Shown in pieces: positions 1 through 38,258 of a stretch of DNA of 38,258 nucleotides. A program made the translations under genes and the position numbers. How positions within the stretch are numbered: position 1 is the stretch's first letter; every line of letters starts with the position of its first letter. The DNA is taken from the IMG/VR virus record IMGVR_UViG_3300033512_000657, positions 1 to 38,258 of that record; one strand, 5' to 3'. The notes under the pieces are model-generated. The model saw only the letters and a list, made by a program, of their open reading frames with translations, made no database searches and was not told the origin of the DNA. Source of the DNA: a virus. Its lineage: Duplodnaviria; Caudoviricetes.

Positions 1-822
1 CAACTCCGGATGTTTACTTCATCGCTCAGCGAAACGAGAAACCAATTCCGTAATTTTGGAAACTAATGGTCAAACTACGGGGAGCAATGCTTCTCAAATA
101 CTCCTTGAAAGACCCGTCATGGCATCTTTCAAGTTCGATGTTTTCCCTTCTCGTGTTGCTGCAATTGTTGCCATTCCTCATTGTACTCATGTAAGTTCTC
201 CCAATGAATACAAATAATCCTTTACAGCATCATCCGTCATCTTCATGGTTTTCGTAACTCACTTGAACGTGAACGAAACTTGGTCTCAACTTTTACTCGC
301 TCTAACTCAAAATTCTTTTAGCCTTTCGAATTCTCATGTTTGAGCATCCATCATAGCTTCAACTAGTTGGTCGAATCACTTTCACTGCGACGAAGCAAGA
401 TCTCAAAGTTTTATTATTTCCGCTCTTGTTGGCTCTATTCATCTATTCACAAGCTTGATATACGATTCGGTGAGTCAATCAATTTCAAAAGGAGTCTTAC
501 TCGCCACCTCAACGATCATATCCATGGCTTCTTTTGATTTCTTTTGTGATTGTAATGCGTTTGTAAGTACTGCGTCGTATTTCTCGAACTTACCTGCTGT
601 ATCCAAAGCGGTTTTTCACAATAAAGAAAAAACTCAAACACCAACAGCACCATAGTTCCTCATGCTTTCAAATGTTTGTTTGTTTTTGTCTGCTCGTTTT
701 TTTAGTGCATCTCAAGACTTACCTATTGTCGCCATTGCGGAGCTTATAGACGTCTGGATTTTTTTAAGTACAGACGTTGCTTGGTCTTGGGCTACAACCT
801 TAAACTTCATATCGTCTGCCAT
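1..822 (-). CDS. tape measure protein (N-terminal part; runs off window)
   Basis: ATG at 822; with TGA=Gly reads ...KTPFEIDGLTESYIKLVNRGIEPT...LGDLASSQGKGFDQLVEAMMDAQTGEFERLKEFGVRA..., a tape-measure N-terminal domain; follows tail chaperone. Confidence 0.92.
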
Positions 823-824
823 TT

Positions 825-1411
825 TTATTTTTTGATTAGATCATTAAAAATTTGATCTTTTTTTGAGTCTATTTCTGCCTCCTGGTTTTTTATGTATTCC
901 TGGTTGGATTTTTCAGAAAGGTACAGCCAACAGTCATTGCGGAAGGGTATTGAAGTTTCCATGAGTTGAGATTCAGACCATCAATACTCCTTGCACAAAA
1001 CGACATTCATATACTCGTTAAAGAAAACATGGTTTTCATGCGAACTCTTTTTTCAACCTATAAGATCTCACCAATATTTTTTTTTTCAAGGTTTTCTTTT
1101 GGTTGGATTGATTCACAAGATCCAATTATCGCATTCATGTCGTCAAAAGATATTGGCATAGTGCTGAAATTTTCGTACGTAACGTCCAATATTTTGTTCT
1201 CATCATCACAAACGTCCCGATTCGTGATCAATTTAAATGCAATCATTGGCAAGTTCTTTGCCATATCTTCTTGTTTTCATGTTGCTATTTCCGCAAGCCC
1301 CAAATCCATTTGTTCTGATACTGTCAAAATATTTCTTATTGTGACCGTTATTCCACTAGACAGAATTATTTCCTTTGCTGAGTTTTTCTTTATGTCCGAT
1401 AATTTTATCAT
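825..1411 (-). CDS. tail assembly chaperone, -1 frameshift product (gpGT-like)
   Basis: A10 run at 1077-1086; -1 frame open (..VLCKEYGWSESQLMETSIPF..) to TAA at 825-827, 2 nt before the tape-measure ATG. Confidence 0.7.
1058..1411 (-). CDS. tail assembly chaperone (gpG-like)
   Basis: 117 aa between tail tube and tape measure; A10 slippery run near 3' end. Confidence 0.75.
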
Positions 1412-1436
1412 CTTGCAGGATGGTAAATAATAAAAA

Positions 1437-2906
1437 CTATGCTGTGTAGTATGTCCCTGGTTGTGCGTTCACAACTTTTATTTGTGTTGAATATGTGTCT
1501 GCAACTGAATGTTTTGCTACACCCATCAATTTTTCCTTGATTACTTCTCCTGTTTGGTCTGTTATCTCATGAGTTTGAGATACAACCTCAGGGAAAATAA
1601 TTTGCATTGAGTAAAACGCATTGTTTGTATCTGTAGCAGAAACAATAACAGGAAGTTCGAGATCAATCACATAAGCGTATGCTGTCGCTTTTCTTTGTGT
1701 ATCTCTGTTCACATTACTTTCGTATGCTCTGTTGATTTCTATCTTCACGTCTAGACCCGTAGGAGTTGCGAGGTTTTTTGTATTTTGGATAGCCTCTGCA
1801 ACTTTCTTGTCGAATTCAATAGAAATACTTTCAAAATCAAGGGGATCAGATGCGATAGCATTTGCAACAGTCGTTCCTCTTTTCAATGTAACATTTGAGA
1901 AAGAGAAGAACTTTGTGTCAGTGATAACCGCTGTTTGTTGTACTAATTCCATCTTTGTATCGTTTGCGATAGTCATTGCTGTCGATGTGATTGCGTCGAA
2001 TCCAACAACATCGTTTCCTTCATCGACAATCTTCACAACAACACTTTCTTCGTTTCCAAGACTATTGGACAATCTGATTGTGTCTGTTGCGAGAATTCAC
2101 TTCACTTGTCTTTCTCCAAAATACATCATTGATACCTGGTTGACTGTTCCTCCTGTACCAACACCACTAGAAACTGCACAATTTACGTCAACAGTTGTTG
2201 AATCAACAACATTCACAACCTTCCAGTAGCCGTTATATCAAGAAACTGTGTTTCCTGCAATCTTAACAAGATCGTTTAAAGCCAAACCATGCGTAGCAGT
2301 AACCAATCTCAAAACTCAACTTGTGGGAGTTGCGGATGTGATAGCTTTTGTAGCAGCTTCGACTTTCTCGTTTGCAACCAAAAAAGCAACGTCAAACATT
2401 CCTTGTCATTTTACATCGTTTTCCAACTTCACAATCGCATTGCTGTCAATTGTAAGTTTTGAATTATTAGGAACGACACCGTAAGTTCTTTGGACGATTA
2501 TGTTTGATTTATCCGTTGATGCTTCACATCAACCCTTCTTGTTTTCGATTGTTACAGATTTGTATCCACAAACTTGGTCTTGCAAAGTATGGCGGTGTAC
2601 ACTTCCATCAGTAAGGGAAGAAATATCTGTCGAAGAAATAGATCCAAGAAGCATATAGAACCACATTGGTACGTTTTTTGGGTCTACTTCGACCTTGATA
2701 GATCATTCGATCTTGTTTGCTCCTTTCGCCATGTAGACGACGTTATTCAAAACATTGAATCTTGATTCAGCAGAAATATTCTCGATGTTTTTGTTCAAAG
2801 AGTTTTCTACCTCTGGGATAAATTTATCAGGGATAACAGGACTTCCATTTACAGTCTCTGATTTCCATGCGGTGTACACCGACTTGGACGAAACAACTCA
2901 ACTCAT
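1437..2906 (-). CDS. major tail tube protein with inserted beta-rich domain
   Basis: 489 aa single frame with TGA=Gly (MSGVVSSKSVYTAWKSETVNGSPVIP...); position between tail completion gene and chaperone; no sheath gene seen. Confidence 0.75.
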
Positions 2907-2933
2907 GGTAATTTTTTTGTAAAATAAATAAAG

Positions 2934-3221: not shown

Positions 3222-3236
3222 AGCATCTTCAAAGAA

Positions 3237-3762: not shown

Positions 3763-4248
3763 TTATGAAGATTTACGAGCGTTCCAAATACCTACCTCTT
3801 CGTCAAATTGTTTTTGGATTGCTCTCATTATTTCAGCTTTTACTTTTGGGTTGAACTCGAACACCGACCTCCTCATCCTTCAGGATCAATCTTGATGGAA
3901 GAGAGCGTACTTTGCATTGAATTTCATGGCACAATATGTGGAATCCTTTATGTACGAGATATTATCTTGTAAGTTTCATGTCCATCTCAATATTTTTGGT
4001 CTACTTGGGCTTTGGCGATAGTATCACGACCTTTGCTTCCTTGCCCTCACCGTAGAAACCGACAATGGTGATCGTCTTGGATTTATTGTCAATCAAGATC
4101 ATTCAGTATTGAAGTTCTCGTCTTTCAATTCCTCCATAACTTTCAAAACCCCATCCCAATAGTTCGGTCGCTTCAAAGCCGTTCAAATGAATTTTTCTAA
4201 CTGCCTCGATAGATTTCATCAAGACACAATTTCCATCGTTATATTCAT
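3763..4248 (-). CDS. virion morphogenesis protein (Mu gpG-like neck/tail completion)
   Basis: ENFNTEG...PR[CGA=W]SPLSVST...KILRWTGNLQ...YALFHQDG motifs. Confidence 0.82.
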
Positions 4249-5201: not shown

Positions 5202-6191
5202 CTAGTCGATTACAGTAGTGACCAATCTAGCACATTTTTGATCGATGATTACCATATCGTATTCATCTTGTACAACAACCAATGAATCCAATCCATCTTT
5301 TAGTTGTTCTGTTACTGGGTAAGCAGCAGACATAACTTTCTTTCCACCTCTTCTTGTGAATGTTTTTCCAAAAGATTTTGTGTAAAGACCTGGAGCTTCG
5401 CTGTAACACATGAACACTTTCTTTTCAACCAAGTAAGACAATGTTCCTTCAAGATCACCATCATTATCCCAAGATTGAGCTTCTGAAATAAGGATTTCAG
5501 ATGCCAAAGAACTCTTCAATCTGTCTTGAAGTTCAGGAACAGTAGGAGTTGTTGTATATTTGAATCTATCAATAACTTTTTGGTTGTTTGTCATTGCAAC
5601 AAAAGCATCCAAAGAAATAACGATGTGAGTTGGTCGACTTCCACATTGATCTTTCAAAAGTTTTGCTTGTGCAAGAAGAATCGCTACAGGATCAGATGTC
5701 GCAGTATTGAATCTATCAGCCGCAGACAAAGCGGTGTTATTTGTTATAACAGTATCATCGAAGATCATAGAAGTACAAGCGTACTCCTTAGCAAGTTCGT
5801 AAGCGTTATCAAGAATAAACATTTTGTCTCTTTGTGCATCGATAGGAGCGTCAGCATTAGAGATATCTTGCTTGTAGATATCAGTATAGAGAGCATGTTC
5901 TTCAAGAGTCCATTCGTCGTCAATCTTTACTCCGAATTCGATCTTGTTTGCTCCACCTCTGAAAGCTTTCTTTGTAGCGTGGAGAGCCATTGCCTGCATT
6001 CCAAGATTTGCAATTTTTCCTTTTACTTTATTTACTGCAACCTCTGGGAAAATTTTCTTCCAAATAAACTTCTTGTTATCATTGGAATATGCTTTCAACA
6101 TTGATTGAAGTAGCTCTGGAATATACGCTTCTTGAAAGTCTCAAGCTGCGAAATTCATTACACCTTGTGGAAGGCTGAATTGTTTAGTCAT
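5202..6191 (-). CDS. major capsid protein
   Basis: 329 aa (ATG 6191, one in-frame TGA); IFPEVAV..., SDPVAIL...GSRPTHIVIS, SFGKTF motifs; follows protease and cement genes. Confidence 0.88.
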
Positions 6192-6223: not shown

Positions 6224-6622
6224 TTATGCAATAACTTGAACGATAGGAAGCTTAGCGAATTCGACATAGTCTCCTTCTGCACCTGCCTTCAATGCCTTAG
6301 CAACAGCATTATCAGTAGAACCAGCGATCATAAATCCTCCGGCACCATCTGTTTTAACGAAAGAATCAAGCAATACTCCTCCAGTCCCTACTAGACCAAC
6401 GAAATAATCGCTTTCGTTTACTCAAACCATCAATCCTGCATCCTTTGCTTCGTTTGCAACACCAATAAAGTTTGCACTGTTACTTGTACACTTAATAACA
6501 TTATCAAGATCAGCAGTTGATCTTTCTACTGGGTCGCTCTTAACCATAGCGACTTTTGCAACGTAACTTGAAACTTTGTACGCTGTATTGTGAGTTTTTA
6601 CTCAAAATGGAGTTGTAGCCAT
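6224..6622 (-). CDS. capsid cement/decoration protein (DUF2190-like)
   Basis: 132 aa, FIGVANE..VKTDGAGG..AKALKAGAEGDYVE; between scaffold and capsid. Confidence 0.7.
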
Positions 6623-6649: not shown

Positions 6650-7801
6650 CTATTTTTCAATTTCGTATCCATCCTTCAAGGTTTCATACGCCTTGTTGAA
6701 GTTTACGTCTTTGTCTTTTGCGTACTTGTTGCAAAGCTTGTTGAAAGCACTTTCAGAGATTACTTTTTTCTTTCCGTCTTTACTCATCTTTTCATCTTTC
6801 TTTTCTTCTCCTTTTGAGAAAGATTTTGAAAGTTGACCATCAGTAAGTACATCAAGAGTTTTTTGGTAATCAGAGAAAAGCTTTTGTACAGCCTCAAGTT
6901 CATCAATAGCAAGCTTTGAGAATGCCTTGATAACCTTTTGGACTTCTTCTTTCTTTTCAGCCTCTGGCTGGTTGAAGATGTGGATTCCGTTGAACTTTGC
7001 GATAGTTTCAGAGTAGACTTTTTCTTGTTTGATTTCCTCGTTTTCTTTTGTGAGGTCTTCTTTTGCTTTTTCAAGATCAGCCTTTTCTTTTTCAAGATCT
7101 TCAACTTTCTTTTCCAATTCTACGGTTCCTGTATCTTCATGTTTTTCCAAAGTAGCTTCAACCTCAACCTTCACCTCTTCTTGTTCTTCGGGTGTTGCTT
7201 CGGAGAAAGCCTTTGTAAGTTCTAGTTTTTCAGAAAAGTTCAATGATTTTTTATCAGAAAACTTTTTCAATAGATCTTTCAACATACTTTCAGATTTAAC
7301 AGATAAAATGGTATTTGGGTTTGTGGTTTCGGATGGAGCGCTTGCCACGATTTTGTCCATACCGTTGAAGTATGGGTAGTTAGTGAAAGCTCCGCCTACT
7401 AGTACATTTTCAAATCGTTTGTTGGTGTCGGGATCTTGGTATTTATCAGCAATTTCTGCGGAGAAATACTTGTAATGTTTCCCGTTTAGGTTGTCAGCCC
7501 CGTCCTTTGTGAGTTCGACGGTTGCTCGTAGCTCGTCTTCTTTTGTGTACAACTCCTTGAACCAAGCCTGCGCTCTAGTCCTATCGTGTTCCATGTTTAC
7601 AGGGATCTCATCTTTTTTAACATTATTTTTGAAGTTTTTCAACATATTTGTGAAATACTTCTCATCGATCAAGATTTTTCAGTAGAAAGGGTGGGTTCTG
7701 TTTGCGTATTTGAGGACTTGGATATTGATGATATCCCCTTGTTTTAGCTCTTGCTCAAATGCGAACATTTTCACGCCGTCGTGTCTTATGAGATTTGGCA
7801 T
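6650..7801 (-). CDS. Mu gpI-like prohead protease with C-terminal scaffold
   Basis: 383 aa; HPFYG, IPVNMEH, YKYFSAEI, GGAFTNYPYF motifs then coiled coil. Confidence 0.87.
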
Positions 7802-7867: not shown

Positions 7868-8881
7868 TTATGAATTTACCACAGAGTATGAATCTCTACA
7901 CATCATTCCATATAGGATATCGATACTCCTTGGTGTACAAGAGCATCATGATAACACAGAACAAGCAAGCCCTCATCAAATTGGCGTTGGTCAAGATGTT
8001 GGATTTGCATTTGTTCCTGTATACCCATCAGATATGTTGTTGGTGAAGGTGTTAGAGTCTATTGTATTATTTACTCAACTTCATTGGATTCATAATATGT
8101 TTCAAGAAAGAATATTTCGTGTTACAATGTTGTGATCTGGAGATCACACAAAACTCATTCAGATGCCATTAGAGTATATAAGATTTCAAGATATTATATT
8201 TCATGATGAATGTCATATAGACCCTGCTGATATTTTAATTCATGCGGTTGTATTTCAATATACTTCAGAATTTAATATACTAATTCTAGTAATATATCAA
8301 ACATTTTCTCAATACATAAATAATCAATTCACGCATCATCTTAATATTGTATTATTTATTGTACTATCAGTAAAAGCATCATTAGATGTATTTATGTCTA
8401 TACAGTATGTATTTTTTGCGTGTGTAGATCAAGAATAATTTTCTCAATCTATAGTTACTCAATCAACCACAACTCTTGTTGATAATCAATACAATCACAA
8501 CTGCTCTGGCATGTTAACACTAGAATTTATTGTTGCATATCAACGTTCTCAAACAACCGCAATACATTGTCAAAAAATATATTTTGTATTTGTAATATTA
8601 TGTATTCACGATCAAAGCACATATATTCTATTATCTGTAGAGAGAGTTCACAATATTTCAAATGCAGATCAAGATGCGACGTGAACAACACTTACTGCAC
8701 CAGTAGTACAAGATGATGTCCAATTATCATCATAACTAGACTCCGATCCATATACTCTCTCGATGATTTGCGCATCACTTGGATTTGTTGCCCAGAAAGC
8801 ATCATCAAGATACGCTCCAAATGATACGCCCATAAAAGAGAGGAAAGACATAATTAGTAATAGTTTTTTAAGTAGTTTCAT
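7868..8881 (-). CDS. secreted right-handed beta-helix protein (paralogue 1)
   Basis: 337 aa; signal peptide MKLLKKLLLIMSFLSFMGVSFG; Asn/Gly/Ile-rich beta-helix-like repeats; N-terminal domain shared with 27856-29073. Confidence 0.72.
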
Positions 8882-8898: not shown

Positions 8899-11430
8899 TT
8901 AAATGATTGATTTTTTTAGTCTATTTATTATTTCCTCGTTTTTTTCTTTTCTCTTCCCTGTGAGGTTTGCATTGTTTGCTCTTCTCCATTGGATTTCCTT
9001 CTCTATTTGTTTTGAAGCGGGAGAGTCTTTCGTCAATACAGGGACTTTCAACAATTCTTTTGATGTGAGTGTATCCTTGACTGGAATAGATGATGGGATC
9101 TCCGTGAAGTCTGGCTTGAATTGTTCGTCTGCTCTTATGTATACCCACATCGAACGGCAACGGATATGTTGAGGTGGAGAGTAGTTTTTGTAATCAGGAG
9201 AGTCAAGCTTCACAACTTTCCCATCCAAAGACAAACACCTGTTCGATGTTCTTCAATCGATAATTGCAGAGTATTGTGCGGAATGTAGTTTTTCGGCGTT
9301 TACATAAGCAACCGACTTCCTTCAACTATTGAACGATTGGTTGACTCAAATAGAAACGACCATTCATGCGGCTTGATCTAGGTATGGCTTGACGACGTTC
9401 TTCACGGCAACAACAACCGATGCTGAGCTTGTGTTCTTCAATCATTCATTCTTTACAATTTGGCTCGCTATGATAGCCTTTGTTTCCGCTTCAACCTTGG
9501 AAACAATTCCCTCTGCAATATTTTCTGCTTGTATCTTTATCACATCTTTGAGATCTTGTTTGCTACTTGGTATCTGGAATCACAACTCACGGCTTGTCTC
9601 ATTCTTTCCGTAGTCAAACATTTTTTTGTATGCTTGCGTAACGATTAGAGATATATCCGTTTTGTATTTTGCTGTAAGTTCCGATAAAGCAACCATGTCG
9701 TTCTTTTCCACTGCAAGCTTCACTTGATCGAGAAGTTTTTGTGTCATATTATCCGCAATCTCCGAATACTTCTTCAACAACAACGCTTCTTCTTCGTCGA
9801 GGTTTTCCTTTATCGATTTCAAAGATACCCTTCTTTCTGCGAATGTAAGTGGTCTCCAAAACCCATCAACAACAGGATCGGAGAAATTCCTTGCTCAAAC
9901 ATCATCTCCCTCCATGAGTCATTCAACTTGGTGGTTTATGATCTTTTCGTGGTCAAAGTGTGACTCATCAGAAAAGTGGAGATTCCCGCATCAACACGAT
10001 GAGTGTTCTTTTTCTTCCTTATTATTTTCTATTTTCGAGTTGTCTTTTTTTTTTACACTTTCCTGCTCCTTCATTTTGTTTTGTGCATCCAAAACGGATT
10101 GTTTCTTTTCATTGTATTCCTCTTCGGAAATTTGTGGGAGATGCAAAAGCTCTCTGATGTGCTCCTCTGTCTCGTGGTTGGGTGTAAGTATTTGTCCAGA
10201 AACAAGAGATGCAATAGTTGTTGAAAGTTGTGTCGTGTCTACAACACCAACCTGTCAGAACTTTATCTTTGGGCATCTTCAAACAACACCAAAATTGATT
10301 GCTACAATCTTTGGGATTATGTATTTGTTGATAACTTCCATGTCCTTTTCCAAAAGTCATTTCACCGCCTCAAAAAAGAAAGCAGTTGATGTATTCGCCA
10401 TTCAATAGGATCACTTCTCTGATTTTCAGAGGTAGAGAAATTGTTGGAAGAAAATATCGTTGATGTTTTGTTGGTAGTGTTTTATAGCTTCCGTCAACTT
10501 ATTTGCGTTGTCTCAAATATTCGTAGTCATCCATTCGTATCAAACAAGAGGCGCTCCGTCATCTGAAAGATATTCGGTAACATATCCACTCTCCAAACTT
10601 CTCATATTCTCTGCAATGTTTTTGTACTCTTCGATTTGTGCATCCTCTGTCCCTTGTGGAACTTTTATTTTCAAAGGTGGAATAGCCATCCTTTCTTGAA
10701 GGACGGCGTGGTAGTTCTCAAATTTATCTTTGAAGAATCGATCTTTTGCGATCTTACGATAAAGAGATCGTCCTTCATAATTCACTCACTCGGAGTTGAT
10801 GTTGAACAAAATAAGTTTGTTTGATGGTATGTCGACCGTAGTCATTCCCTCGTTGAGATTTTCATCGTCAGTTTCCTCTTTTGCCTTTGGGTAGAACGTC
10901 AACTGCTGGACTCATGGTTCATCTTTTGAGGTTCTCCACTTGAAAACAGTTTCACTTGCAAGCCTTGTGAATTGTGGAAAAAATCACTCATCTTTTTTCT
11001 CGAAATACAACTCAAAAAGAGAGAACCCATCCCTCACATATAAATTTATGTCTTCCAAAAATCATTTGAATCATTTATCTAGGTTTTCAAACAAACATTT
11101 CTCAACGAACTTCGCGACATCTTCATCTTCGGGAGTTGGTTCTTTCCCATCTTCGGAAAAAGGATCAACAAAAAAGTTTGTCGATGTCTTCATTAGTGTG
11201 ATTGCATTTCTCATTTGGAAAACCTGTCAATCATTATCCATTCTCATGAAAATCTGTTGACGTTCGTATTTGCTTTTGAATCTCTCGGAATACTCCTCGA
11301 ACATGAAACCGTTGCTTTGTTTTGTTCAATAAGATGACTCACGAACGAATAGAAGCTTGGTCTTTGGTAGCTGTTCCTTGTTTATACTAAAAGACTTTAC
11401 TGCGTTTTTTATAGCTTCTGTGATTTTCAT
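8899..11430 (-). CDS. portal protein (DUF935/Mu gp29-like) fused to minor head protein (Mu gpF/SPP1 gp7-like)
   Basis: 843 aa with no TAA/TAG; portal motifs (DGFSLFE, NYEG.SLYR, IPKIVAINFG) then AIIDGRTSNRCLSLDG..PPQHIRCRS. Confidence 0.85.
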
Positions 11431-11433: not shown

Positions 11434-13023
11434 CTAGAAGTCTTTGGTAAAAAATTGTTTTTTTGGAGAATATTTTTCAATGAGTTCTTGTGTCCTCTTT
11501 GAGGCACTATTTTGATTTGGTATAGTATTTTTTGTGGGCGATTCAATAGATTTTGAAACGTCTTTTTCTGTCAATTGCAAAAGTATCTTGTGCTTCAACA
11601 AAAGCTGTGTGAAAGAATCGACACGATCGTCGTGTTCCACATTGGGAAACTTTATCATTTCCTTGATGAAGCCTTGATCTATATCAGGAGAAAAAAGCAC
11701 GTGTCATCATTCGATGTATGGCTGGCATTGCCTCAACCTCATCACCTTTGTCATTTTCAATGGATCGTATAAAAAAATCATCCATCAAAACTTCCTTATG
11801 AGATTTTTTCTCAACGTCATCCCTCAAGCTTTGTTTTCTATAATCAAAGCCTCAACTCAAAACTTTTTGTAAAGAAATTCTAAACGTTCCTCGATTCTTA
11901 TGGGATCTTTTTGCCTTCACTTCAATTGTTCAGAGTGCCTCACATTGAATTTCCTTTTCTCTGGCATCCATGTCGCTATTGTTACACCGATTGGATCACT
12001 TCAATCCTTTTCTGATTCTCAGGAATCGATGGAGATATAGGTTTTGTGTCAGTAAGTGATTGGGACATATTGCTCGTATCTGATCCATTGCTCCTCGATA
12101 ATAGGAACATCATTTCTCAAAGGGACAAGGAGATAATTTGCACCAAACCAATCTCTTCATTGTTCGTCGCGTAAAGCATCGATAGAAACAACGTGGCTTT
12201 CGGGAGGTAAGGTTTTATTTATTTTGTCAGCATCATCACTTTTCCAAACGAATCTTTCTGGTCGGTGGATCTTTCCGTCATCGATCAATTTCGTGTATAC
12301 GATTTTCCACTTCTTATTGTTTTTGTAATCCTCCGCAAGTCTAGGCAACACTCAATCTTCGTTGATAGTGTTTCCCAAAATTATCTTTTGTCCTGTTGCT
12401 CAACCAAAGATTGCACCCTTTACTTTGTTGTATGTTTTTTTGATAGTGATGGGATTCGCTGTGTTTTCGTCGTCATCGATGTCATCAAGTACATCAAGAT
12501 CAGGACGGAGAGATTGGTCACGCATAAAAACATTTAATCACCTTGTGGATTTTTTCACCGAGTTGGCTTTGACCATTACTCCGTTTGTCGTAGTGAATCA
12601 TGAAGTTCTTTTTTGTTCTTTCTGCTTGAATACACCATGCGAAGACTCTCAATAATACAACCTTCAATAATCGTTGACAAACATACTCGTTTCTGATCCA
12701 ATCATCATATTTGAAATTGATGTGATGTTGTCCTCCGCTTTCGATACGTCGTACGATGTCCATCTCACAAATTTTTTCTTCCTTGTTGCTACCCACTTAC
12801 AAATCATTTTTCTTATGATCGATGTTTTTGCGCAGCCTCTGTATCAAAACCATATCAAATTTCCTCCATTTTCTATCCACTCCAATATCTCTTCGTAATC
12901 TTGTGGAGTTCAAAAGGAATCACAAAAGTAAAAATCACACCAAAGCATTGGCTCCTCGGGGAAACAAATAGACCTTAGTGTCTTGTCCTGTGAAATCTCA
13001 TCGAGCAAATCTCCATCTATCAT
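11434..13023 (-). CDS. terL: terminase large subunit
   Basis: 529 aa; GYRGCAKT ATPase motif, RPDLDVLDDIDD Walker B, FPNVEHDDRVDSFTQ nuclease motif. Confidence 0.93.
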
Positions 13024-16069: not shown

Positions 16070-16141
16070 AGAAGACCTTGCACAAGAATAGTTGCGTAAG
16101 GTTATTTCCAACTAACGCAATATATCTTGTGCTAGTGTCTA
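16070..16141. repeat. structured repeat copy 2 (attC-like hairpin)
   Basis: AGAAGACCTTGCACAAGA...TCTTGTGCTAGTGTCT; overlaps TAG stop of the Dps-like gene. Confidence 0.8.
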
Positions 16142-21624: not shown

Positions 21625-22173
21625 CTAAAATAAAACGATTTTATTTTTCCTATACATCTCACAAAAACATTTCTTCGTTGCGGTGATATCACACAAAGCA
21701 TCGTGGGCATCTTCAAATTTTTCTCAGAAAATCTTTTCATGGAGATCTTGTAGTTTTGCCCATTTCGATGATCACATAACTTCTTGCGTTGCTGGATGTT
21801 TCATAGTACAAAGCGTTTTCACTTTTGATCGGTCGAATGTTATTCAAAGAATTTCACATTCTCTTTTCAACATTCTCATATCGAAATCCACGTTATGGCA
21901 AACAACAAGATCCGCTTTGTTCATATACGCCAAGAACTCTTTGATATACGAATCCATGTATTTGAACTTCGATATTTTTTCTTTTGTGATATGGTGGATA
22001 TCCGATGCTCACTTTGAGATTTCACGATCAGTGTTTATCATCTGATTGATTATACGCTCATCGAAGAAAACATCCGCTTCTTTATCATAGAATCAAAATA
22101 TTGCTCAAAACTGGATGATCCTATCTTGGCTTTCAAGCCCTGTTGTTTCTGTATCGAAAAAGAATATTTGCAT
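21625..22173 (-). CDS. DEDDh 3'-5' exonuclease (DnaQ-like)
   Basis: FFDTETTGL, VCHNVDFD, AHDALCDI motifs; 182 aa. Confidence 0.9.
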
Positions 22174-22196
22174 TTGTTACTTTTTAGACAAAATAA

Positions 22197-22418
22197 TTAA
22201 TAATCTATAGGTTTGTACCGTTTCATAAAATTTGATATACTTATTTTTAGATAGTTATTAAAAAGCCAAGCAAATAACCTATTACATCACAAAGGCACAA
22301 GATAAACTGTTTCATCTTTCACTTTCACAACAAAATCATATCATATTTTAAACTTCATATCTTTCGACATAATGCACCAAATTTCTCACCTCTTAGGGTA
22401 TTTTTTCACTTTTTTCAT
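22197..22418 (-). CDS. hypothetical protein
   Basis: 73 aa open with TGA=Gly. Confidence 0.45.
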
Positions 22419-22422
22419 TTGT

Positions 22423-23031
22423 TTATTTTATTGATAAATTCCTATTTTTCTTGATGTATATTTTCCCCTCCAATTCCTTCTTTTCATCTTCGGAAAGTCC
22501 CTTGTATCGTGTTTTTATTTCAGGGAGTCCGGATCTTGATACTGTAACATTGTATCATTTCTTTTCTAGATCCTCAACATCTTCTGGCATAATTCTTAAA
22601 ACATTGTATATCCTCATATCAAGTGGTAGGAAGTCGAGATCTTCAATAGCCATAGACTCTGAATTTGTGAACTTAATTTTTGCAACAGGTGTTTCCATTT
22701 CTTCAATCCCTGCAACATTCAAGAGGTACTCAATCCATTTGTCGGTTTTTTCTATTTTTTTGTCGTGTGCTTTTTTGCGTTCTGTAAGTTTTTTGAGCTG
22801 TTCGGATATTCCATCCGAAATCATTATTTCCTCTCTTCTTTCGGATAACTTCCGTTCGATGTAGCTTCTTACTTCATCTTTGTGTTCGGAAATCTTATCC
22901 GACAATTCTTTTTTTACCAACTCGATATCCCCTGGGGATAGAGATTGGCTCTCGCAATATTCTTGATCGTCCAGCAATTCTAGCGTTTGCATTGTATCAA
23001 AAATATTCTTTATGTTTTCAGTTAGTTTCAT
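22423..23031 (-). CDS. siphovirus Gp157-like protein
   Basis: 202 aa; coiled coil LKKLTERKKAHDKK, IEEMETPVAKIKFTNSES, C-terminal NLSIK. Confidence 0.72.
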
Positions 23032-23233
23032 GGGGTTTTATGTAACACATTTAAAATAATCTTTTGGCTTTTTACTTGTTCGATACTCATCCCGAGATCT
23101 AGTCTTTCAATTCCATTTTCTTGCTTTGTATCTTGGAGAGCGGTCACATTTTACTTTTTCTATGGCTTGGGCCTCTCCCAATGAGTGTCTCAATATGTCT
23201 AGGTTCTTTTCTTCTTTCTTGAAGAACTCTTCA

Positions 23234-23908
23234 TTAAAATGGCAGGTCATCTTCTTTCACAAGATGGCTCCCATATATCTTTTCTGCGAACCGTGTAGTT
23301 TGCAAATCATCAATAAATTCTTTTGCTTGTTCTTTCGATAGGTCTTTTGAGGATTCAACATCATATTTTTTCTTCAAATACATCTTTCTTTGTTCTTCCG
23401 TCAGCCCTGTTTTTCCCCACAATGATGCAGCAAATGCAACCTGCTTTTCTGAAATCATTCATGGATTTTGATGATCAGTTGATGGCATATTGGATACGTA
23501 TTTATGTTGTTCATTCTTTGCGTCCGTACTTTCTATTTTTCAAATCATTCGCTGATAAATAATATCCGCAGATATCTCCAATCAGTCTACTTCAATTTTT
23601 CATCAAACAACCAAATCTTTTGCGTAACTCATGGCGAATGAAATGAAATCGATCTTTGGATTTCTTGCTTGATACGATCATCACTTTTGAGAAAATGATC
23701 ATGCCTTCTGAATTTTTTTGATAACCTTTCCATACTTCCCATCGGAAATATCATACTCAAATTCCATTCACTCATTGATTCCGTCAGGTTTTGTGCTGTT
23801 GATTTTTCATTTGTCTCCGTTTTCCATTTCGATCTCGAAAGAAAACATAGTTCAATTTTGTCATTTCCACTCACTAGTGGAATGGATTTTCTTCACTTTG
23901 CTTTGCAT
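23234..23908 (-). CDS. single-stranded DNA-binding protein (putative)
   Basis: 224 aa; N-terminal WKGQNGTMFSFEIEMENGDKG beta-domain, C-terminal EDDLPF tail. Confidence 0.65.
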
Positions 23909-24010
23909 AGTTGCGATTGTTAAGAATAAAGAGTTTTGTAATCCTGTATCTTTGGTTGTGCCGTACTCGTCACACTTCGCGATGAAGTGATACTTTGTTA
24001 CGTTGATACA

Positions 24011-24544
24011 TTATTGATTTCGATATGGATATCAAGAGGAAGTTTGTGGAATCTTTTTCGAGAACTTTTCGTAGAGATCTTTGTGTCGTTTAGAGCTTAT
24101 TTCACAGATGTATCAAAATTTTTCTCACATTCATTGTTTAAGTTTTGCCATGTAAGACAATCAAACTACTATAATATTTTCTCCGTTTTCTAGTTCTGTG
24201 AAGGAAACAACTTGGTAATCTCAAACCATATCGTCAAATCTTTTGTCTTTCCTTGCAAGGTTTTGGTTCTCATCAATTTCTTTTTTCTTGCGGAAGTTGT
24301 AAATATCGAAAGACATTTTTCTTGATGGGGCAAGTATCTTCTCGGAAAAAAGATCATGGAGTTCGGTTCTAGGTAGAGTGAAAAATTCCATAATAATCCT
24401 CCCAAAGGATTCCCTGTTTTCCTCAAATATTTGTCTGTATGCTTCCCGTCACATGTTGCAAGCCTCTTCAATGAAAATGACAATATCATTGAGCCTTTCT
24501 CCTGTAGGTTTGAATTTTTTCTCTAATTCTTTTGCTTCGATCAT
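24011..24544 (-). CDS. hypothetical protein
   Basis: 177 aa open with TGA=Gly. Confidence 0.6.
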
Positions 24545-24548
24545 TTTT

Positions 24549-24833
24549 TTATTGTAATGTAGGTAAAGTTGGACGACAGTATGGATCAATTCCTAATTGT
24601 TTTTTCTCTTCGTTCTGCTTTGCTAGCCTCTCCATAAGATCCATGGTCTTCCTCTCGTCTGAGTTTGCTTCTTTTTTGTATATCCTTTTTATATTCGAAA
24701 CATTCTCGTGCCTTCATTTCTCGACCTCTATAAATTTTGATCAATTTTGGAGAAGATCCATAAGTGGTTCGTATTTCTCGATCGGGGCAAAGAAACACCG
24801 ATCGTCGAAAGTTTCAATCTTAGTAAATCGCAT
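24549..24833 (-). CDS. hypothetical protein
   Basis: 94 aa open with TGA=Gly. Confidence 0.5.
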
Positions 24834-24858
24834 AGGTCATTTTTTAAAGAATAAAGGA

Positions 24859-25647
24859 CTATTTTTTTGAAAAGCTTCGGCTATCCGCAGGAAAAGAAAC
24901 AACAACAGGAGGTTTATTCACCGATTGTTTGCATATTTGCATAAGCTCCGCCAATCCGAAGTATATTTTTTTTGGTGATCCGATCTTGTGGGAATGGTAT
25001 TGATTCTCGGAAATTATTTTTAAGACAGATTCAAGCACCTGTTGCCAGGAAAATTTTCCCGCGACGACTGTGTCTACATTCTTTAATTTTCAAATTAAAT
25101 TTTTAGAATAGATCCTTTGCTCTTTTTGGGAATCTCAACAAATACCGCTATTGTATTTTTTTATGATTTCAATTGCTTCATTTATTTCAGGATCTCCGTA
25201 CACGGCTTTTGCTTCTACGGTAGTAGAAGTATCTTCATTTGTATTATTAATATTTGTAATATTATTACTTATACTATTATGTGGAGATTTTTGTATATAG
25301 GGGTCTCCCTTTTTTTCTCCATAGGGGTCTACACATTTTTGTACATAGCTATCCTTTTTTTTCTCCACACTATCCCTTCATTTTGATATTGATATTTTCC
25401 TGCTATTCCCGTTATCTTTCGATATTTCCACTTCTATGTATCAGCTTTTTTCAAGAGAACAGACATTCACAGAAACCGTCTTTCATGTACATCAAAGACA
25501 CTCTGCAATATATTTGTTTGATGCTCGGCAAAATCACTTTTCGGCACAAAGACTTGAAATGTAACAAAACAGCAACTTCTGCTTATCCGAAAGTTCTTTG
25601 TCAAACATCACAGTGTTTGGCATTATCCCGTATCACTTTTCGATCAT
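24859..25647 (-). CDS. replication initiator protein (N-terminal HTH)
   Basis: 262 aa; IMPNTVMFDKELSDKQKLLFCYISSLCAEKGFC[W]ASNKYIAECLG; internal repeats and N/I/T-rich linker. Confidence 0.85.
25287..25367. repeat. iteron-like repeats, putative replication origin
   Basis: ATAGGGGTCT x2, ATTTTTGTAyATAG x2, CC(T)nCTCCA x2 inside initiator gene. Confidence 0.55.
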
Positions 25648-25942: not shown

Positions 25943-26473
25943 CTATTTTCAAGAGAAATATTTCTTTCTGAACTCAACAAAAGATTTGATTCATCTCTCT
26001 CATCGGAAATTTCTATGTATATCGACCTTCCTAGAAGAACTAACGCCATCCCGTAATCTTTTTGACCTAGAACCAGTCCAAACGATAGAAGCATGCGTTA
26101 AAATATTTTCCTCTGGTATTTTGTACACGTTTTGGAGATGTTTTACAAGCTCTATCGTTCTGTCGAATTGTATATCAGTAAAAGTATCGACTCATTCTAC
26201 TTCGATACCCAAAGAATATCTATTCATCAATCTCAAATCTCATCGATGAGATTCTCAAGCGTGCCAAGTGATTTGATGTGGCTCTGCGAGTTTATAAGTA
26301 AGTCATTTTGGATCAATGTAGAAATGGCAACTAACTTTTCAAACTTTTCATAACAGACGATCAATGTTTCACTTTGTCCCCATACTTCATGTGCTGTGCA
26401 AAATGATGTATTCGATGGTGTTTTTACCATACGAAATGTTTTTAGTTTTTAGGGTTTTGTCTCGCTGGAACAT
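25943..26473 (-). CDS. endolysin, N-acetylmuramoyl-L-alanine amidase (Amidase_2)
   Basis: 176 aa; YIILHST, VSCHFYI, TWHAGESH[W]G, NRYSLGIEVEG, NILTHA, RKVD. Confidence 0.92.
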
Positions 26474-31274: not shown

Positions 31275-31283
31275 AGATATATT

Positions 31284-31736
31284 TTAGATAAAAAAGGGTT
31301 TTTGACTTGTATAGAGTTGAGTATGTTCTGCTAGTGCCAATTCTCTATTATATAGTCTTTCCATAGATAATTGCATACTTCAATATGTTGTATTATTTAT
31401 TCATATTGTCATTGCATTGAATGCGACATCCGTTGTACTTATTATCGTAACAAATTGCCATTTATTCGCTACAAGCGTATTAGTATCGACTCAATTTATA
31501 TAAGCATTATCAAAGTCTGTATATGTCAGCGTTCAAGAATTTATATGAATAAGATTTGCATTGGCACTTCATTCTAATATTTTTACCGTTGTTGATTTTG
31601 GGTATATCCAAAAACATATTGATTTTACTGTGTAGGTTCAAGATACTACTAGTTTACTTGCAGTGCCGTTGTAATCCTCAACATAAAATGGTCATTTTCT
31701 TTTTAAAGTTACTGCTGTATTAGTGATATCAACCAT
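31284..31736 (-). CDS. LamG domain protein (C-terminal part of split gene)
   Basis: 150 aa; DYNGTASKL, SICFWIYP, NKWQFV, RLYNRELALAEHTQLY. Confidence 0.75.
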
Positions 31737-32394
31737 ATGTTTTTTTATGTTCTAAATAGTGACAACTTCTACATAATGTTATTCAGTTTTTAACATCTCG
31801 TAGTCTCTTAAATTCAATAAGATATTCTTGCGATTTTCAAATTAGATTATTTTCCACTATTATATCTTTTATTCTTTTCTTATGATGTGCCTCTATATAT
31901 CATCAACATCAACATTTTGTACATTTTTGTAAATCTCTATTAAAAACCTTTTCCCTTCGTTCTCTATATTTATATATTCATCTTATTTTATTATATGTTT
32001 TTGTTATTCATCATTTCCGATTATAACACTTTTCTCAACTTAAATTTATAGAATATCATTTTGATCTACACTTCATACTACAATAATAATTGTCTCATCT
32101 TTTATAGTCCGTTCTATTTCTGTAAATATCTTTTCAACATATAGAACATTGGCATTCTATATCTCATCATTTCCATTGTCAATTACGAGTTCATTTTGTG
32201 CTACAATCATTACAATATTTATATGTTTTCTTGGATAACTCTTTTCAGCAGTCAATACAATATGATTTTGGTTTTCTCCTATAATCACTCATACAATCTT
32301 GTGAACAAAAGTTCGTTTTTCATTCTAAACATTTTTTATTTATATATTCATTTCAACATTGCTTGCAAATATACACCTTTTCTGATTCTCTCAT
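31720..32394 (-). CDS. HNH homing endonuclease with Zn-finger repeats
   Basis: 224 aa; FCSQDC, N[W]KGG, YRE[W]REKVFNRD..CTKC..EAHH..L[W]DVKNGITLCRSCH. Confidence 0.9.
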
Positions 32395-32423
32395 ATTATA
32401 TAGTAGGATATAAAATCCTATAT

Positions 32424-32451
32424 ATTATATATGTTTATTTATGGGTTTCAA
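32424..32451 (-). promoter_or_regulatory. promoter of HNH gene
   Basis: TTGAAA-16nt-TATAAT, followed by TAGGAT/ATCCTA hairpin before ATG. Confidence 0.6.
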
Positions 32452-33128
32452 GTTATTATTCAACTTCTACTATCAATATCAAATACAAGTCAGTTTCTTA
32501 TGTCTTTGTAGGTAGAGTTGTTATATAGATTGGCTATTTCCTGGTCAGTAAATGTCTTTGGAAAAAACTCTACAATTTCAAAGATTCAGGTATTAGCTAT
32601 GTAAGATCAAAGCCCATTATAAGCATTACCTATCCTTGCATTTTTACTTGATATCACAGGGCAAGAAGTCAAAATAGTTCAGGTAAAGCCAAGTGTCTGC
32701 TTTACTCAGTTTATGTAAAGAATTGCTTTTGTTGCGTTTGTCGCTTGTGAACCGTCATAAACAAAATACATATCATATGCTCACAATCACAAAGCTATAG
32801 ATCAATATCAAGCTCATGTTTGAAAATAACACCTATTATCATTATACATTCACAAAAACACTTGTGTTGCCGAGTTAGTGACTCATTGTGAAACTGAAAA
32901 GGCTCTTGATGATGTCGTTAGAGTTCACTTTATTCTTACCGTAAATTTAGTCTTTCAAGAAAAGTCATACCCACTATTAACATAATCTCACACAACATTA
33001 TTTATAGTCATCGCTCAATTAGAAAAAGTAGGAGTTCCAACAACTGTTCCTTGCTTTCTTGTATCCTGTTCTGAATTGAAAGTGTATCTTTCGACAGGCT
33101 TTCATTGACTATAAAGTGATTCCTTCAT
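32439..33128 (-). CDS. LamG domain protein (N-terminal part of split gene)
   Basis: 229 aa; FVYDGSQ..ILYINGV..TDQEIANLY, ending at start of another module (NGLVFDIDSRSGII). Confidence 0.75.
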
Positions 33129-33483
33129 TGTTTGTAAATTGTGAAACAAAATCCTCCCAAGAGGTGTTTTCTTCGTATGTTAAAACATAGTCGATGTAAT
33201 CGTTTACAAATACTTCTACGTCAATCAAATCACTTGAAAGCATTTCTATCAGTTCTTGTTTTGACTGTGGCTTTGTTTCACTATTCATTGCGGTATCACC
33301 TAGTGTTTCAAGCCTTTTAACTTCCTCCATTACTTGAACAAAGTATTGGAATGGGTATTTACTAGTCTTAGAGAAAGCCTCCGATTCGTTTCATCGTTGT
33401 TTTAGGAACTCATAAACCTCTTGTGCTTGTTCTTGTGTTATTGGTGGAATTGGTTCTGATGGTTTTATTTTATTGAAAAGCAT
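33109..33483 (-). CDS. hypothetical protein (tail-fibre region)
   Basis: 124 aa with TGA=Gly. Confidence 0.6.
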
Positions 33484-33500
33484 AGTGTTTATTTTAGAAA

Positions 33501-35183
33501 TTAAATATATTCCCTTACTCAAATAGTTCAAACATAAGACTCATTTCAACCATTGTTATTGTATACACATAACCATATTTCATCTCTTACGCTTGCAAGG
33601 CTTTTTCACAATCTCAATGCATTTTGTAAATCAGAACTTGAAGCGTCTACATCTGCAGAAAAGAATCATGAGGCAATAACTTCTCAATACGCTGTTACTG
33701 GAAGATTATCCGTAGCTTTTTGTAATACTGAGTTTGTAACGTCTGTAAATGTTGAAGCTCCTGTATATGTAGGGTTAAATAACAATAATCGATGTCAGTT
33801 TCAAGATGTGGTAGCTAATATTGAAACGTCTGTAATATCAGTGGCAAATTCAAAGCTATCTTCTTTTAATCTAATTCAAAGTATTGTTTCAGTAGCTCCA
33901 CTAGCTACTGCTTGTGCTGTTTGTTTGTATATACTTCTATACATACCTTTGGGGTTAAATCACCCTTCACTAATAACAGAACTACATATTTGTTTCAAGC
34001 TTCATGCTCACGCTGTGCTTGTTATTGCATAAGAAATAGGCAAGTTTGCTGTTCTCATATATACGTCTGTAAAACTAGCCGTGCTTGCGTGCCTGAATTG
34101 ATGTGCAACAAGAACTTCTCCATTTGGAGAAACGAAACCACATCTTACTGCTCAAACTCATAACCATTCCAAATCAAAGAAAAGGATATTTGCGTATGCT
34201 ACATTTATTGTTATTCAGCTTTTCCCTGTGCCGTCTAATTTATCAACATTCCAACTTGATTGTGCGACTGTTTCTGTAACTACTCAATTATTATAAATAC
34301 AAAATGATAAAGTTCCTGCATTATTTACAAAACAAACCCCATTTCTAGGAGTGTTGTTTATCGTTGCCAATCAAACATTATCATAATCAAGCAATCCTGC
34401 TCTTTTTATTTGTCATGCTTCGGTATTGAATAATCAAGTCATCAAAACCATATGCGATTTTCAAGGTTGGTATTTGAATCTTTGTTTTGTTTGTCTTACT
34501 ACATAATCACCTGCAGTTGCTGTTGAAAGTGTATATTTACTTGTTGGATTGTCATATAATCAGCTTCAAGTTCAATTAGTCAATGTACTCCAAAATAAAG
34601 TATCTGAAAATTGAGAAGTAAGAGAGTTGTCGAACAATGTATAAGGCTCTGATACTCTTATTCTTCAAAATGCATCTTTCTGCTCTTCCAAAGAAACTGA
34701 TAGATTTCAGTTTATGTTTGTTTTAATATCACGAAATACTCAATTAGGGTCTTCTCAAGTAAGAACTGATTTCATGAGCTCTGCATCATCGTCTCCCTCA
34801 ATAGTATCTTTTATCCTATGTGAACTAGGTTTTACATATGTTGTTTTGAATTGTGTTTGTAATCTGAAATATGTTTGAGGACTCGCACCATTGGTATATA
34901 CGATTCTAAACCACTTGAATACTGGTTGAAATGTGTAAGTCTCACCGTGAGTTCAATGTACTGTATAGACATCGGTAACATCTCGGTTTGTTCAATCAGG
35001 AGAAAATTGTACTGATAGTCAATCAGTTGCACTGTTTACGTCAGTCCTTACTGAAACTACTATGGTTCAAGTATCCACTATATTTTCCGCAGTACCTGTA
35101 AAAACAGCACCACCTGCTAAAGTCGCTACCGTGCTGTTTACCTTTGACACTCTTCCGTCAAATGATGATTGGAGTTCTTTCAT
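33501..35183 (-). CDS. virion structural/tail-associated protein
   Basis: 560 aa; NSTVATLAGGAVFTG, QFSPDGTN[W]D, DAFGRIRVSEP, RQTKQRFKYQPGKS, QSSWNVDKLDGTG. Confidence 0.7.
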
Positions 35184-35204
35184 TGTTTGTTGTGAAAAAT
35201 AAAA

Positions 35205-36773
35205 CTAATATGTCAAAGTGTATAACAGGTTATCTATTTGACCCGTTCAGTCTGCATCGTCTCTAGCTTGTACTTGGATATATGGTGTTCAAGTTACATC
35301 AAAAGTAATCTTAAACAATTGATCGCTATCACTAGCTATTAAGTAATCATTAAGATTTATTGTTGTTTGTCATCATGCGGGACTTCATAGGAATATTTCT
35401 CTATACTCCTCAGCTCCTGCACTTGTGTGTTTATGGAGTATTCTAATTTGCACACCTGTTGAAGTATTTATGTCTATAGTGAATCGTAGAGTCAAATACT
35501 TATATCAAGCACAAGGTATTTCAAACCCAACATCCGCAAAAGTGTTTGTAAGTTCGTAAGCTGTAGAAGTAAGAGGTGTTACTTCTTGGTAGTAACTAGA
35601 ATCTGGATTTTGAGAAACAACTTTTTTTACATCCAAACTTGGGTCATTTTCCTTCAAAACACTATTAATTCAAACCTCATAAACATCTCAAGAAGCGAAC
35701 GCCGTTCCTGTATGTCAGGAAATAGTGACGACATTCGTTGCTGTATCGACTCTCAAAGTGCAATTTATTCCCGCCCTCCAAATTTTTGTGTTTCATGATG
35801 TAGGAACAACCTTGATGTATACAAGTTGTGAGCTATCAACAAACGAGAAAGGAAGAGCAGAAAGTGTGATGGTCGTTGGACTTGTGTATGTTGCGGTGAA
35901 ATCCGATGGGCTTTTGTAGTCAACAGCAGAAACCATAAGTCAAACAACCGAGTTCATTAGAGAAAGCGTTGTTTCTGTTGCGAAATCTTTTGCGTTCAAC
36001 GTTGTGAACTTCCCATCGATGCTCGATAGGGAAGAATTTCACGTATCCTGTTTTGCAGACGTAGCGAAATCTTTTCAAGCAATCGTCGCAAGGTTTCATC
36101 ACGATTCTTGAGCATAATTAGAAATATTTCAGCTTTTTATGTTGATATCCAAAGCCCCCGTTGTACTTGTTATCGCATTTCCTGTCCCGTCGAAAAGATA
36201 TGATTTAACTGATGTGGTGAGCTGGGTAACAATATCTTTCAACCTTCAAAGCAATGTATTTGATGTTGGTGATGCTTGAACTTCTCAAACCTTTGTATCA
36301 ATATTTCAAAGACTAGTATTTCAAGTGTCTTGCTTCGCCTCGGTTGAAGGTGCTGAAATTATTTTATCGGTTCATGTCTTTATTCCACTCAAAGCAGTAT
36401 CAAGGTTGTCGGTTTTGGCTTTTATTGCCGCAAGAGTCGTCTGTGTTGCGAAATCTTTTCATGCTATCGTTGCAAGATTCCCACCTGTCTCTTTCGCTAC
36501 ATTCACAAGAGTATCAGGAAGATCCATAATTATCATAAGATCGTCCGTATTTGTCATCGATGAAGTGTCAAAATCCAATGTGAAAACATAACCAACAAGA
36601 GTTGCTCAAAATCCTGTCTTGTTCGGTTGGTACATGATCGTGTTTGTGTTTACGTTCACGATGGCCAAGAGCCATTCCAACTTGATCGTTTCTGAAATTC
36701 AAGAAATAGTCACCGTTTTTGCGGTTTTATCGAAAGCATAGGATCACACATTTACCCCCATGAGTTGTTTCAT
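35205..36773 (-). CDS. tail fibre-like protein with internal repeats
   Basis: 522 aa; YAFDKTAKTVTI..LDFDTSSMTNTDDL; repeats GGNLATIAGKDFAT. Confidence 0.7.
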
Positions 36774-36774
36774 T

Positions 36775-37185
36775 TTATCAAAAAGCTAAGGCATAAAAAA
36801 ACGCATTTGAATCAACTTCGTTCAATGCTATTTGTAAGTCTGTTTGGTCTGATAAATTCCCTGTTATTTCTCACCACACTGGATCGGTTGCATCATTTCG
36901 GTTGTCGATATCTTGTTGGGTTATCCCAAAAAAAGGATACGCCTCTAATTCTGTTTTCGTGTAGTAATTAGCAAATATCGCATCGATCTCTGCTTTTGTG
37001 TAAATATTCCCGAAGGTTCATGTAGTAGCAATAATTCAATGAGTTCACAAATTGACATCTTTGTAGGCTCACGAATAGGGAACAAACTCAACTGGAATAT
37101 CTCAAAATTTCCAAACAATTAGTTCTGTTTGGTCTATCGATGTGTTGATGTCTTGCTCTTGTTCGACTTTCACGATGATGTCCAT
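36775..37185 (-). CDS. tail fibre-associated protein
   Basis: 136 aa; FVPYSGAYKDVNLG, ITQQDIDN[W]N, WGEITGNLSDQTDL. Confidence 0.72.
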
Positions 37186-37205
37186 TTTTTACTTTTGGGT
37201 TAAAA

Positions 37206-38258
37206 TTATCGCTGTGGCTGGCGGATAAAGTATGATCATGATGGATCTCTTACGTATATCCATTTTCATACGAAACACGTAATTGTAGCTCATCTGGCTA
37301 TTGGTCATGTTCACGTGAGGTCGTTTCATGAACTATCTAGGAGGTGTGTATATAGTGATGTTGCCTCGAGTATTGCATACTTTCATATTCATACGGTAGT
37401 ATAGGATGGGTCGATATTGTACGTCAGTCAAGAAAATGTAAGATCTCATCAACTTGCCATGCTAGTGTCATATCTATATATCACCTTATCTACGCTTCAC
37501 GCTTTATAAAAGCAAAGGTAATCTCAATCAAATCAACATAGGTTGTATGTCCCTCAATCTAGAACTCACGATCATATTTCTGTTCGGTTTCATGATACCG
37601 ATACATCTGAGGTAGTTGGGCATTTAAACACCTTTGTATCTGGAGAAGTATACAATGCAATGTAATAGTAACCACCAACCACAACTCATCAACGTCATTG
37701 AGAACCAACAAATAGCGATGATGCTGCTATATCTTGGTCGTTTCACGAAAGGAGTTTTTTCGATCTCGATGTGGGGTGATAAATATCGACACTTGTTCAC
37801 GCACAATCAACTCCAAGGTTTGGGTCGTCAGTATACTCCCAAATAACTCATCAGTAAAGGATATTCGTGTCGGTAAAAACACCACTATACACAGCCTTAC
37901 TCGTTGGAACTTCTAAGTCTGTATCATTAAGTGATGTCGCTATTTTAGAACCTCAGTCTTTTATTAACTTTCCAGTAGTAGAGTCAAAAACAGCGATATT
38001 TTCGTCGTTTGCTGAACTTGGTCAGTTAACATCTCCAGTCCCTGAATATCCTCAAAATACTGATGCTTTGTAATTCTCAATATCCGTAACCACTCATGAT
38101 GCAGTCGTTACTATTGCAAGAAGAGCCTTGTCAGTATCGTCGGAAGCCTCTTGTGTGATTACTCAAGAAGAGTCAACCAAAATGTAAATTACGGAATCGT
38201 CTGCAACAACCAAATCCGTAATTCAAGCATAGATTCATTTGTTTCAATGTACGGAATA
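37206..38258 (-). CDS. tail fibre protein (5' end outside window)
   Basis: open to window edge; GDVNGPSSANDENIAVFDSTTGKLIKD and VPTSKAV motifs. Confidence 0.72.

Follow-up and report, generated by a model that had tools for sequence, protein, structure and literature searches.

The closest described counterpart of the genetic code discussed here is bacterial. Shulgina and Eddy (2021, PMC8629427) predicted that UGA encodes Gly and both CGA and CGG encode Trp in Absconditabacteria, and that CGG alone has become a Trp codon in some Gracilibacteria. The KACI preprint recovers the host reassignment, and gTranslate places table 25, in which TGA is Gly, in the GTDB class JAEDAM01. Phages and prophages that use code 25 have also been described (Liu et al. 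2023, PMC10746230; Borges et al., 10.1101/2021.08.26.457843). In these, as in the genome analyzed here, in-frame TGA codons read as Gly are dense and occur in some 90% of the genes or more, and Borges et al. interpret their figure of ~90% recoded genes as adaptation to a code-25 host. Here, we describe IMGVR_UViG_3300033512_000657, a 38,258-nt IMG/VR record of a tailed phage (the window, meaning the whole stretch of DNA analyzed), in which TGA is read as Gly and CGA and CGG (together, CGR) as Trp.

The likeness to the Absconditabacteria code of PMC8629427 extends from the three reassignments to a low GC content (~0.35), an Arg complement supplied mainly by AGA, and an excess of CGA over CGG, with the difference that the reassignments were reported in host bacteria and here occur in a phage. 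The share of CGR among Trp codons, 45/97, comes close to that of the host genome in which PMC8629427 found the reassignment furthest advanced (CGA 30, CGG 24, and UGG 35 per 10,000, counted in Pfam domains only). RSA-ATP1, a phage of Strigamonas methylophilicida (Absconditicoccaceae; 10.1101/2024.03.08.584096), is likewise a code-25 tailed phage, 39 kb in length, whose genes include a DnaD-like initiator, a RusA-like gene, and an HNH gene; it carries a tRNA-Gly(TCA) and three other tRNAs, whereas none was found in the window or in its complete relative, G002. The hosts of the phages in PMC10746230 and Borges et al. were predicted or spacer-linked (Absconditabacteria/Gracilibacteria), whereas that of the window is deduced from the code alone. 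Two phages of recoded Bacilli hosts that read AGG as Met (PMC8629427) resemble the window in having adopted a sense-codon reassignment of the host without carrying the tRNA, but they concern another codon in another phylum, and in the window the stop codon TGA has changed together with the sense codons CGA and CGG. The string "CGA" is absent from the main text of PMC10746230, Borges et al., and the RSA-ATP1 paper; the supplements of the first two may list the window genome. A literature search that was thin on subscription journals and left supplements aside found no paper on CGA/CGG as Trp in a phage, returning at most the host paper PMC8629427.

The three-codon code in this phage is real, but it is largely expected from the published host code. 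What the analysis adds is evidence for the sense-codon change from a family of phages, a host tag, the recognition of mistranslated public records, and the avoidance of TGA in high-copy genes. We consider it very probable that this phage, with these codon meanings, infects an Absconditabacterales (SR1) host whose tRNAs decode the three codons accordingly, and that its recoding is passive adaptation.

Reading frames and codon usage

The window is the whole IMG/VR record, a linear contig of ~35% GC that is estimated to be 91% complete; by synteny with G002, what is missing is the remainder of the tape measure gene plus two additional genes of the tail region. Under code 11, frames of 600 nt or longer occupy a 0.09 share of the genome; reading TGA through raises this share to 0.66, as compared to just 0.16 or 0.25 when TAG or TAA is read through instead. 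The 56 annotated genes end in 38 TAA and 18 TAG codons, TGA by construction not having been offered as a stop, and the window agrees with table 25 in having in-frame TGA as Gly and TAA and TAG as its stops. Translation under code 25 yields a siphovirus-like gene set on the minus strand, including a RusA-like gene (PHROG scan), and nearly all genes lie on that strand. In the 32 genes supported by homology (7220 codons), there are 263 TGA, 207 GGN, 52 TGG, 35 CGA, 10 CGG, 28 CGT/CGC, and 191 AGA/AGG codons, and TGA is the commonest Gly codon genome-wide. Table 25 alone would still give the wrong residue at 45 of the 97 Trp codons that these 32 genes contain.

Meaning of TGA, CGA, and CGG

Two independent relatives, G002 (42 kb, 100% complete) and G003 (26 kb), were found, and a metagenome scan returned no others. 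Among sequencing runs, one DNA run was listed for the window, at a share of 0.07, and no RNA run. Differing sites were counted in masked alignments of genes with at least 40% identity, and 41 codon swaps were recounted genome by genome since L001-L003 are near duplicates. CGA or CGG stood opposite TGG at 22/31 differing sites in G002 and 15/21 in G003, opposite a Phe or Tyr codon at 5 sites in G002 and 4 in G003, and opposite Arg or Lys at none. Each codon behaved in this way when counted separately: CGA faced TGG at 15/20 and 8/13 sites and CGG at 7/11 and 7/8, with Arg at 0 in every case. CGT and CGC, in contrast, faced AGA or AGG at 11/24 (G002) and 10/19 (G003) sites and TGG at none, and thus remain Arg; the difference in Arg pairing between CGR and CGT/CGC has p=2e-5 for G002 and 1e-4 for G003. 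By this exchange pattern, the CGN box is split throughout the phage family, CGY (CGT/CGC) encoding Arg and CGR encoding Trp. TGG, CGG, and CGA would be exchanged silently as synonyms through single transitions. TGA was opposite GGN at 72/116 sites in G002 and 84/136 in G003, and opposite TGG at none.

Proteins from outside the family point to the same meanings. We masked TGA, CGA, and CGG as X in three genes and compared them with 145 HNH, 111 tape-measure, and 114 structural-protein homologues, after excluding the records of the window itself as well as 18 homologues rich in W (4 HNH, 9 tape measure, 5 structural), the latter being likely code-4 mistranslations. The masked profiles assigned Gly to TGA (56 columns, 71 log units above the next residue), Trp to CGA (5 columns, posterior 0.9999, 16 log units above Arg), and Trp to CGG (1 column, posterior 0.83), in agreement with the residues anticipated in the preliminary description. 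As a control, 56 further codons had columns; 53 of them gave the standard residue and the remaining 3 had 2-4 columns and posteriors <0.3, although this control is a favorable one in that these codons had been aligned under the standard reading; CGT/CGC had just 2 columns and were uninformative. Gly was the top residue at 13/16 well-covered tape-measure TGA columns and at 24/31 TGA columns of a second set, and W at none. Reading CGR as W raised the top PHROG score in 12 of the 16 proteins that have both a CGR codon and a match; in the gpG-like protein, whose CGA site was judged by PHROG score only, the phrog_26 score rose from 25.7 to 33 bits. Together, the outside profiles and the codon exchanges with relatives support TGA as Gly and CGA and CGG as Trp.

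The preliminary description had named nine CGA/CGG sites as conserved Trp positions. All nine hold the named codon on the minus strand (eight CGA, and CGG at 32017-19), but the conservation is uneven. It is strong at the three HNH sites, where W occupies 127/141 (the CGG site), 132/145, and 116/136 homologues, and at the portal site 10738-40, where W occurs in 3/3 aligned cultured phages, as it is at a further CGA of the structural protein (33789-91; W in 99/112). It did not hold to that degree at the QFSPDGTN-W-D site of the same protein (34983-85), with W in just 35/84, or in the replication initiator (25525-27), with W in 3/6 cultured phages and T, Y, and T in the others. The terminase large subunit (TerL) site at 12262-64 has W in 2/3 homologues, and the amidase site at 26243-45 has W in AMPDh2 and P0004 and Y in AmpD. 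The first of two WKGG repeats in the HNH protein uses TGG (32173-75) and the other CGG (32017-19), as had been noted. TGA is likewise the Gly codon at the motifs cited for it, namely LGDLA (394-408) and TGEFERLKEFG (307-339) of the tape measure protein, WHAG of the amidase (26255-66), and DCSG (19667-78), and in the repeat pair within 35205-36773 a GGT GGG (at 36491) is opposite TGA TGA (at 36107). The NlpC label given to the DCSG protein is based on this motif, its open reading frame (ORF) having neither a PHROG nor a Pfam match.

Several observations weigh against these assignments. CGG is supported by a single outside-profile column. In 4 of the 16 proteins, the PHROG score fell when CGR was read as W, by 4.1 bits in the major capsid protein, 1.8 in BppU, 1.3 in an RlpA-like protein, and 0.1 in TerL. 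Portal CGA221 (10768-70) is opposite R in 3/3 aligned cultured phages, capsid CGA186 (5634-5636) is opposite K, Y, D, R, R, Y, and E in outside proteins, and tape-measure CGA43 and CGA224 are opposite S/K and L/T in columns without Trp. One HNH TGA is opposite W in 74/130 homologues.

These columns leave a small chance that CGA is read ambiguously, mainly as Trp and partly as Arg, and could thereby persist at ancestral Arg positions. The portal column and the R or K in 3/7 outside proteins at the capsid site, where the Trp reading also costs PHROG score, are what such decoding would predict; yet codon 221 of the portal is TGG in G002, codon 186 of the capsid is TGG in G003 (and CGA in G002), and CGR is opposite an Arg codon at 0/52 sites in the two relatives, and we regard ambiguous decoding as quite improbable. 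Because TGG occurs at both positions in a relative, Trp is tolerated at capsid 186 and portal 221. The two CGA codons could be leftovers of the reassignment; as an Arg-to-Trp scar, however, the case was left weak, the outside columns being mixed and the portal site being V in L005.

The HNH column bears on a different alternative, that the genome uses code 4, with TGA as Trp and CGA/CGG as Arg, as in its public protein records P0001 and P0005. Against that single column and the records themselves stand the absence of any TGG opposite TGA at 252 differing sites in the relatives and the G-topped TGA columns described above, which leave code 4 with a negligible share of our belief. With TGA as Gly and CGR as Trp, the public translations are wrong at 15/176 (P0001) and 23/224 (P0005) residues. 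Records P0002 and P0003 look mistranslated likewise.

Spread of recoding and decoding apparatus

Recoding pervades the genome, as the preliminary description had proposed for early and late genes. TGA is present in 31 of the 32 homology-supported genes and CGR in 25, and TGA makes up 55/90 Gly codons of the replication genes. (The stop-codon count of the 56 annotated genes, the lysis and replication-gene counts, and the TTC, TAC, AAC, ATA, and AGG counts below, include a frame at 16158-16493, for which 16139-16573 is the better frame; the 32-gene counts exclude it.) Such a distribution bears on the possibility that the host uses the standard code and that in-frame TGA is a switch controlling late genes or lysis, a role proposed in gut phages that use code 4 or code 15. 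TGA is indeed frequent in the lysis cassette of endolysin and holin-like genes, at 22/32 Gly codons, but its share there equals that of the rest of the genome (453/700, p=0.71); recoded stops are not concentrated in late structural or lysis genes, early genes are not spared, and the capsid and tube genes are depleted in TGA. No tRNA gene was found in the window, G002, or G003 with ARAGORN or Rfam RF00005, nor was an RF-1-family release factor (PF00472) in the same three records, controls being positive in both searches; an Rfam scan of the window gave no match. Among stop-recoded phages of standard-code hosts, only some encode a suppressor tRNA or release factor. The earlier statement that there is no suppressor tRNA consequently holds for the 91%-complete window and the 100%-complete G002. 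Moreover, a stop suppressor cannot account for a change in sense codons. We give a switch very little credence and retain the view, already taken in the preliminary description, that the code matches the host: TGA is not enriched in the lysis cassette, a gene for switching the code was not found, and early genes are recoded. Recoding would then be passive adaptation to the host rather than a timing switch, with a host tRNA-Gly(UCA) decoding TGA and a Trp-type tRNA (UCG/CCG) decoding CGA and CGG.

Avoidance of TGA in high-copy virion genes

Not all genes use TGA equally, an observation that the preliminary description missed. In the capsid, small head protein, protease, and tail tube genes, TGA accounts for 11/74 Gly codons versus 252/396 elsewhere (p=4e-15), a contrast tempered by the fact that the high-copy set was picked after the per-gene table had been viewed. 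The trend recurs in the relatives with a six-gene set (16/82 versus 107/241 in G002; 33/86 versus 125/198 in G003). The same four genes favor TTC, TAC, and AAC and avoid AGG and ATA (ATA 6/78 versus 348/806), and codon preferences of this sort usually mark genes that are selected for efficient translation. The avoidance of TGA in high-copy genes runs opposite to what a lysis switch would lead one to expect. TGA may be a less efficiently decoded Gly codon that selection has removed from the most heavily translated genes, which makes the avoidance a testable claim on the decoding quality of a reassigned stop codon. We are evenly divided on the composite view that this is the first phage family shown with all three Absconditabacterales reassignments, that UGA in it is a second-class Gly codon purged from capsid, protease, and tube by slow or error-prone decoding, and that CGA as Trp serves as a host tag.

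Host

The order of the host follows from one codon in particular. In the accessible text of PMC8629427, CGA as Trp is reported only for Absconditabacteria, and its use here therefore points to Absconditabacterales as the likely host order. The same code would be seen with a host from the BD1-5/Gracilibacteria lineage, or from some other code-25 clade not yet sampled, in which CGA is likewise Trp. Some Gracilibacteria read CGG as Trp (PMC8629427), and no direct host link was obtained, the order being drawn from the code; but CGA as Trp is not among the Gracilibacteria assignments given in that text, and CGA outnumbers CGG in the window (35 versus 10), and we consider this alternative unlikely. 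Assignment to Absconditabacterales is also weakened by the code-25 signature having appeared in 0/57 sampled Patescibacteria genomes (58 stretches, one of them uninformative), and by the host code in PMC8629427 being itself a computational prediction. To that prediction, so far computational, the phage genes add independent support from separate genes for a bacterial sense-codon reassignment. CGA as Trp offers a simple sequence tag for the hosts of phages of uncultured Patescibacteria; if true, it sets the phages of Absconditabacterales apart from the remaining code-25 phages.

The only genome match to TerL, a 2.5-kb contig in a metagenome-assembled genome (MAG) labeled Dojkabacteria, was rejected as an indication of the host. 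The bin is mixed: that contig and two others read code 25, while four read code 11, and the weak matches of its relatives carried no stops. When 300-400 sampled genomes from the phylum of this MAG were searched four times, there was no in-frame-TGA match among the matches listed (for one search, 150 of 394). The MAG itself (G001; JANWZV010000105.1; L005, L016, L019) holds code-25 phage-like contigs beside code-11 contigs, probably by mis-binning. TerL of its code-25 contig has R under table 25 at the expected Trp (LHRPERF). None of our conclusions draws on the unpublished genome G195.

Gene map and minor features

The assigned features of the window are collected in Table 1.

Table 1. Positions, assignments, and recoded codons of features in the window
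Feature	Position	Strand	Assignment	Recoded codons
Tape measure protein, cut by contig end	1..822	-	PHROG 5062/26804	17 TGA, 3 CGA
Probable tail tube protein	1437..2906	-	Label from position, without informative PHROG name	7/31 Gly = TGA
Tail completion / neck 1 (gpG-like)	3763..4248	-	phrog_26	CGA at 4072-4074
Major capsid protein	5202..6191	-	phrog_1005	1/15 Gly = TGA; CGA at 5634-5636
Small head protein (decoration-like as inferred label)	6224..6622	-	phrog_673	2/14 Gly = TGA
Mu I-like head maturation protease/scaffold	6650..7801	-	phrog_328, PF10123	1/14 Gly = TGA; 2 CGA
Portal fused to head-morphogenesis domain	8899..11430	-	phrog_113 + phrog_241	CGA at 10738-40 and 10768-70
Terminase large subunit (TerL)	11434..13023	-	phrog_38	18 TGA; CGA at 12262-64
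Replication/recombination block: DnaQ-like exonuclease, Gam-like protein, 23234-23908, replication initiator	21625..25647	-	phrog_192, 253, 428	
Amidase_2 endolysin	25943..26473	-	PF01510	11 TGA, 4 CGR (CGA at 26243-45)
HNH endonuclease	31720..32394	-	149 homologues	20 TGA; CGG 32017-19, CGA 31957-59, CGA 31798-800
Virion structural protein	33501..35183	-	phrog_1645	31 TGA; CGA at 34983-85 and 33789-91
Probable tail-fibre-type protein with internal repeat pair	35205..36773	-	Repeat family D7	

The replication/recombination block is recoded like the remainder of the genome. The probable tail tube protein is 68-74% identical to its relatives, and the portal with its head-morphogenesis domain is a single 843-aa ORF that is also full length in G003. 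A tail-assembly-chaperone-like ORF (1058-1411) stops just past an A10 run at 1077-1086 (minus strand), and the -1 frame runs on (KKKYWG..) to 825. G002 and G003 conserve both the run and the -1 frame, the Trp in this frame being TGG in the window and CGA in the two relatives, and we take the arrangement at 825-1411 to fit a lambda G/GT-type frameshift.

Two ORFs, 7868-8881 (between portal and protease) and 27856-29073, look paralogous, with a hydrophobic N-terminus, a common first domain, and Asn/Gly-rich repeats. Neither has a counterpart in G002 or G003, the first has no PHROG or Pfam match, and they are possibly host-derived surface proteins. A 144-aa ORF at 16139-16573 (minus strand) without a Pfam match presumably resembles ferritin/Dps, to judge from its motif. 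The sole plausible plus-strand genes, 14093-14641 and 15743-16027, are membrane-protein-like, contain one TGA each, and have no Pfam match. A tyrosine integrase was not found in the window or its two relatives, in a search that did not extend to serine recombinases.

Within the initiator gene, three imperfect 32-nt repeats with 22-24-nt spacing (25290-25367, family D3) are possible origin iterons. The region 29403-35183 contains LamG-domain, HNH, and structural genes with no match in G002 or G003, the LamG ORF alone having 49 TGA codons; it reads as a swapped tail/receptor module that is as fully recoded as the core genes.

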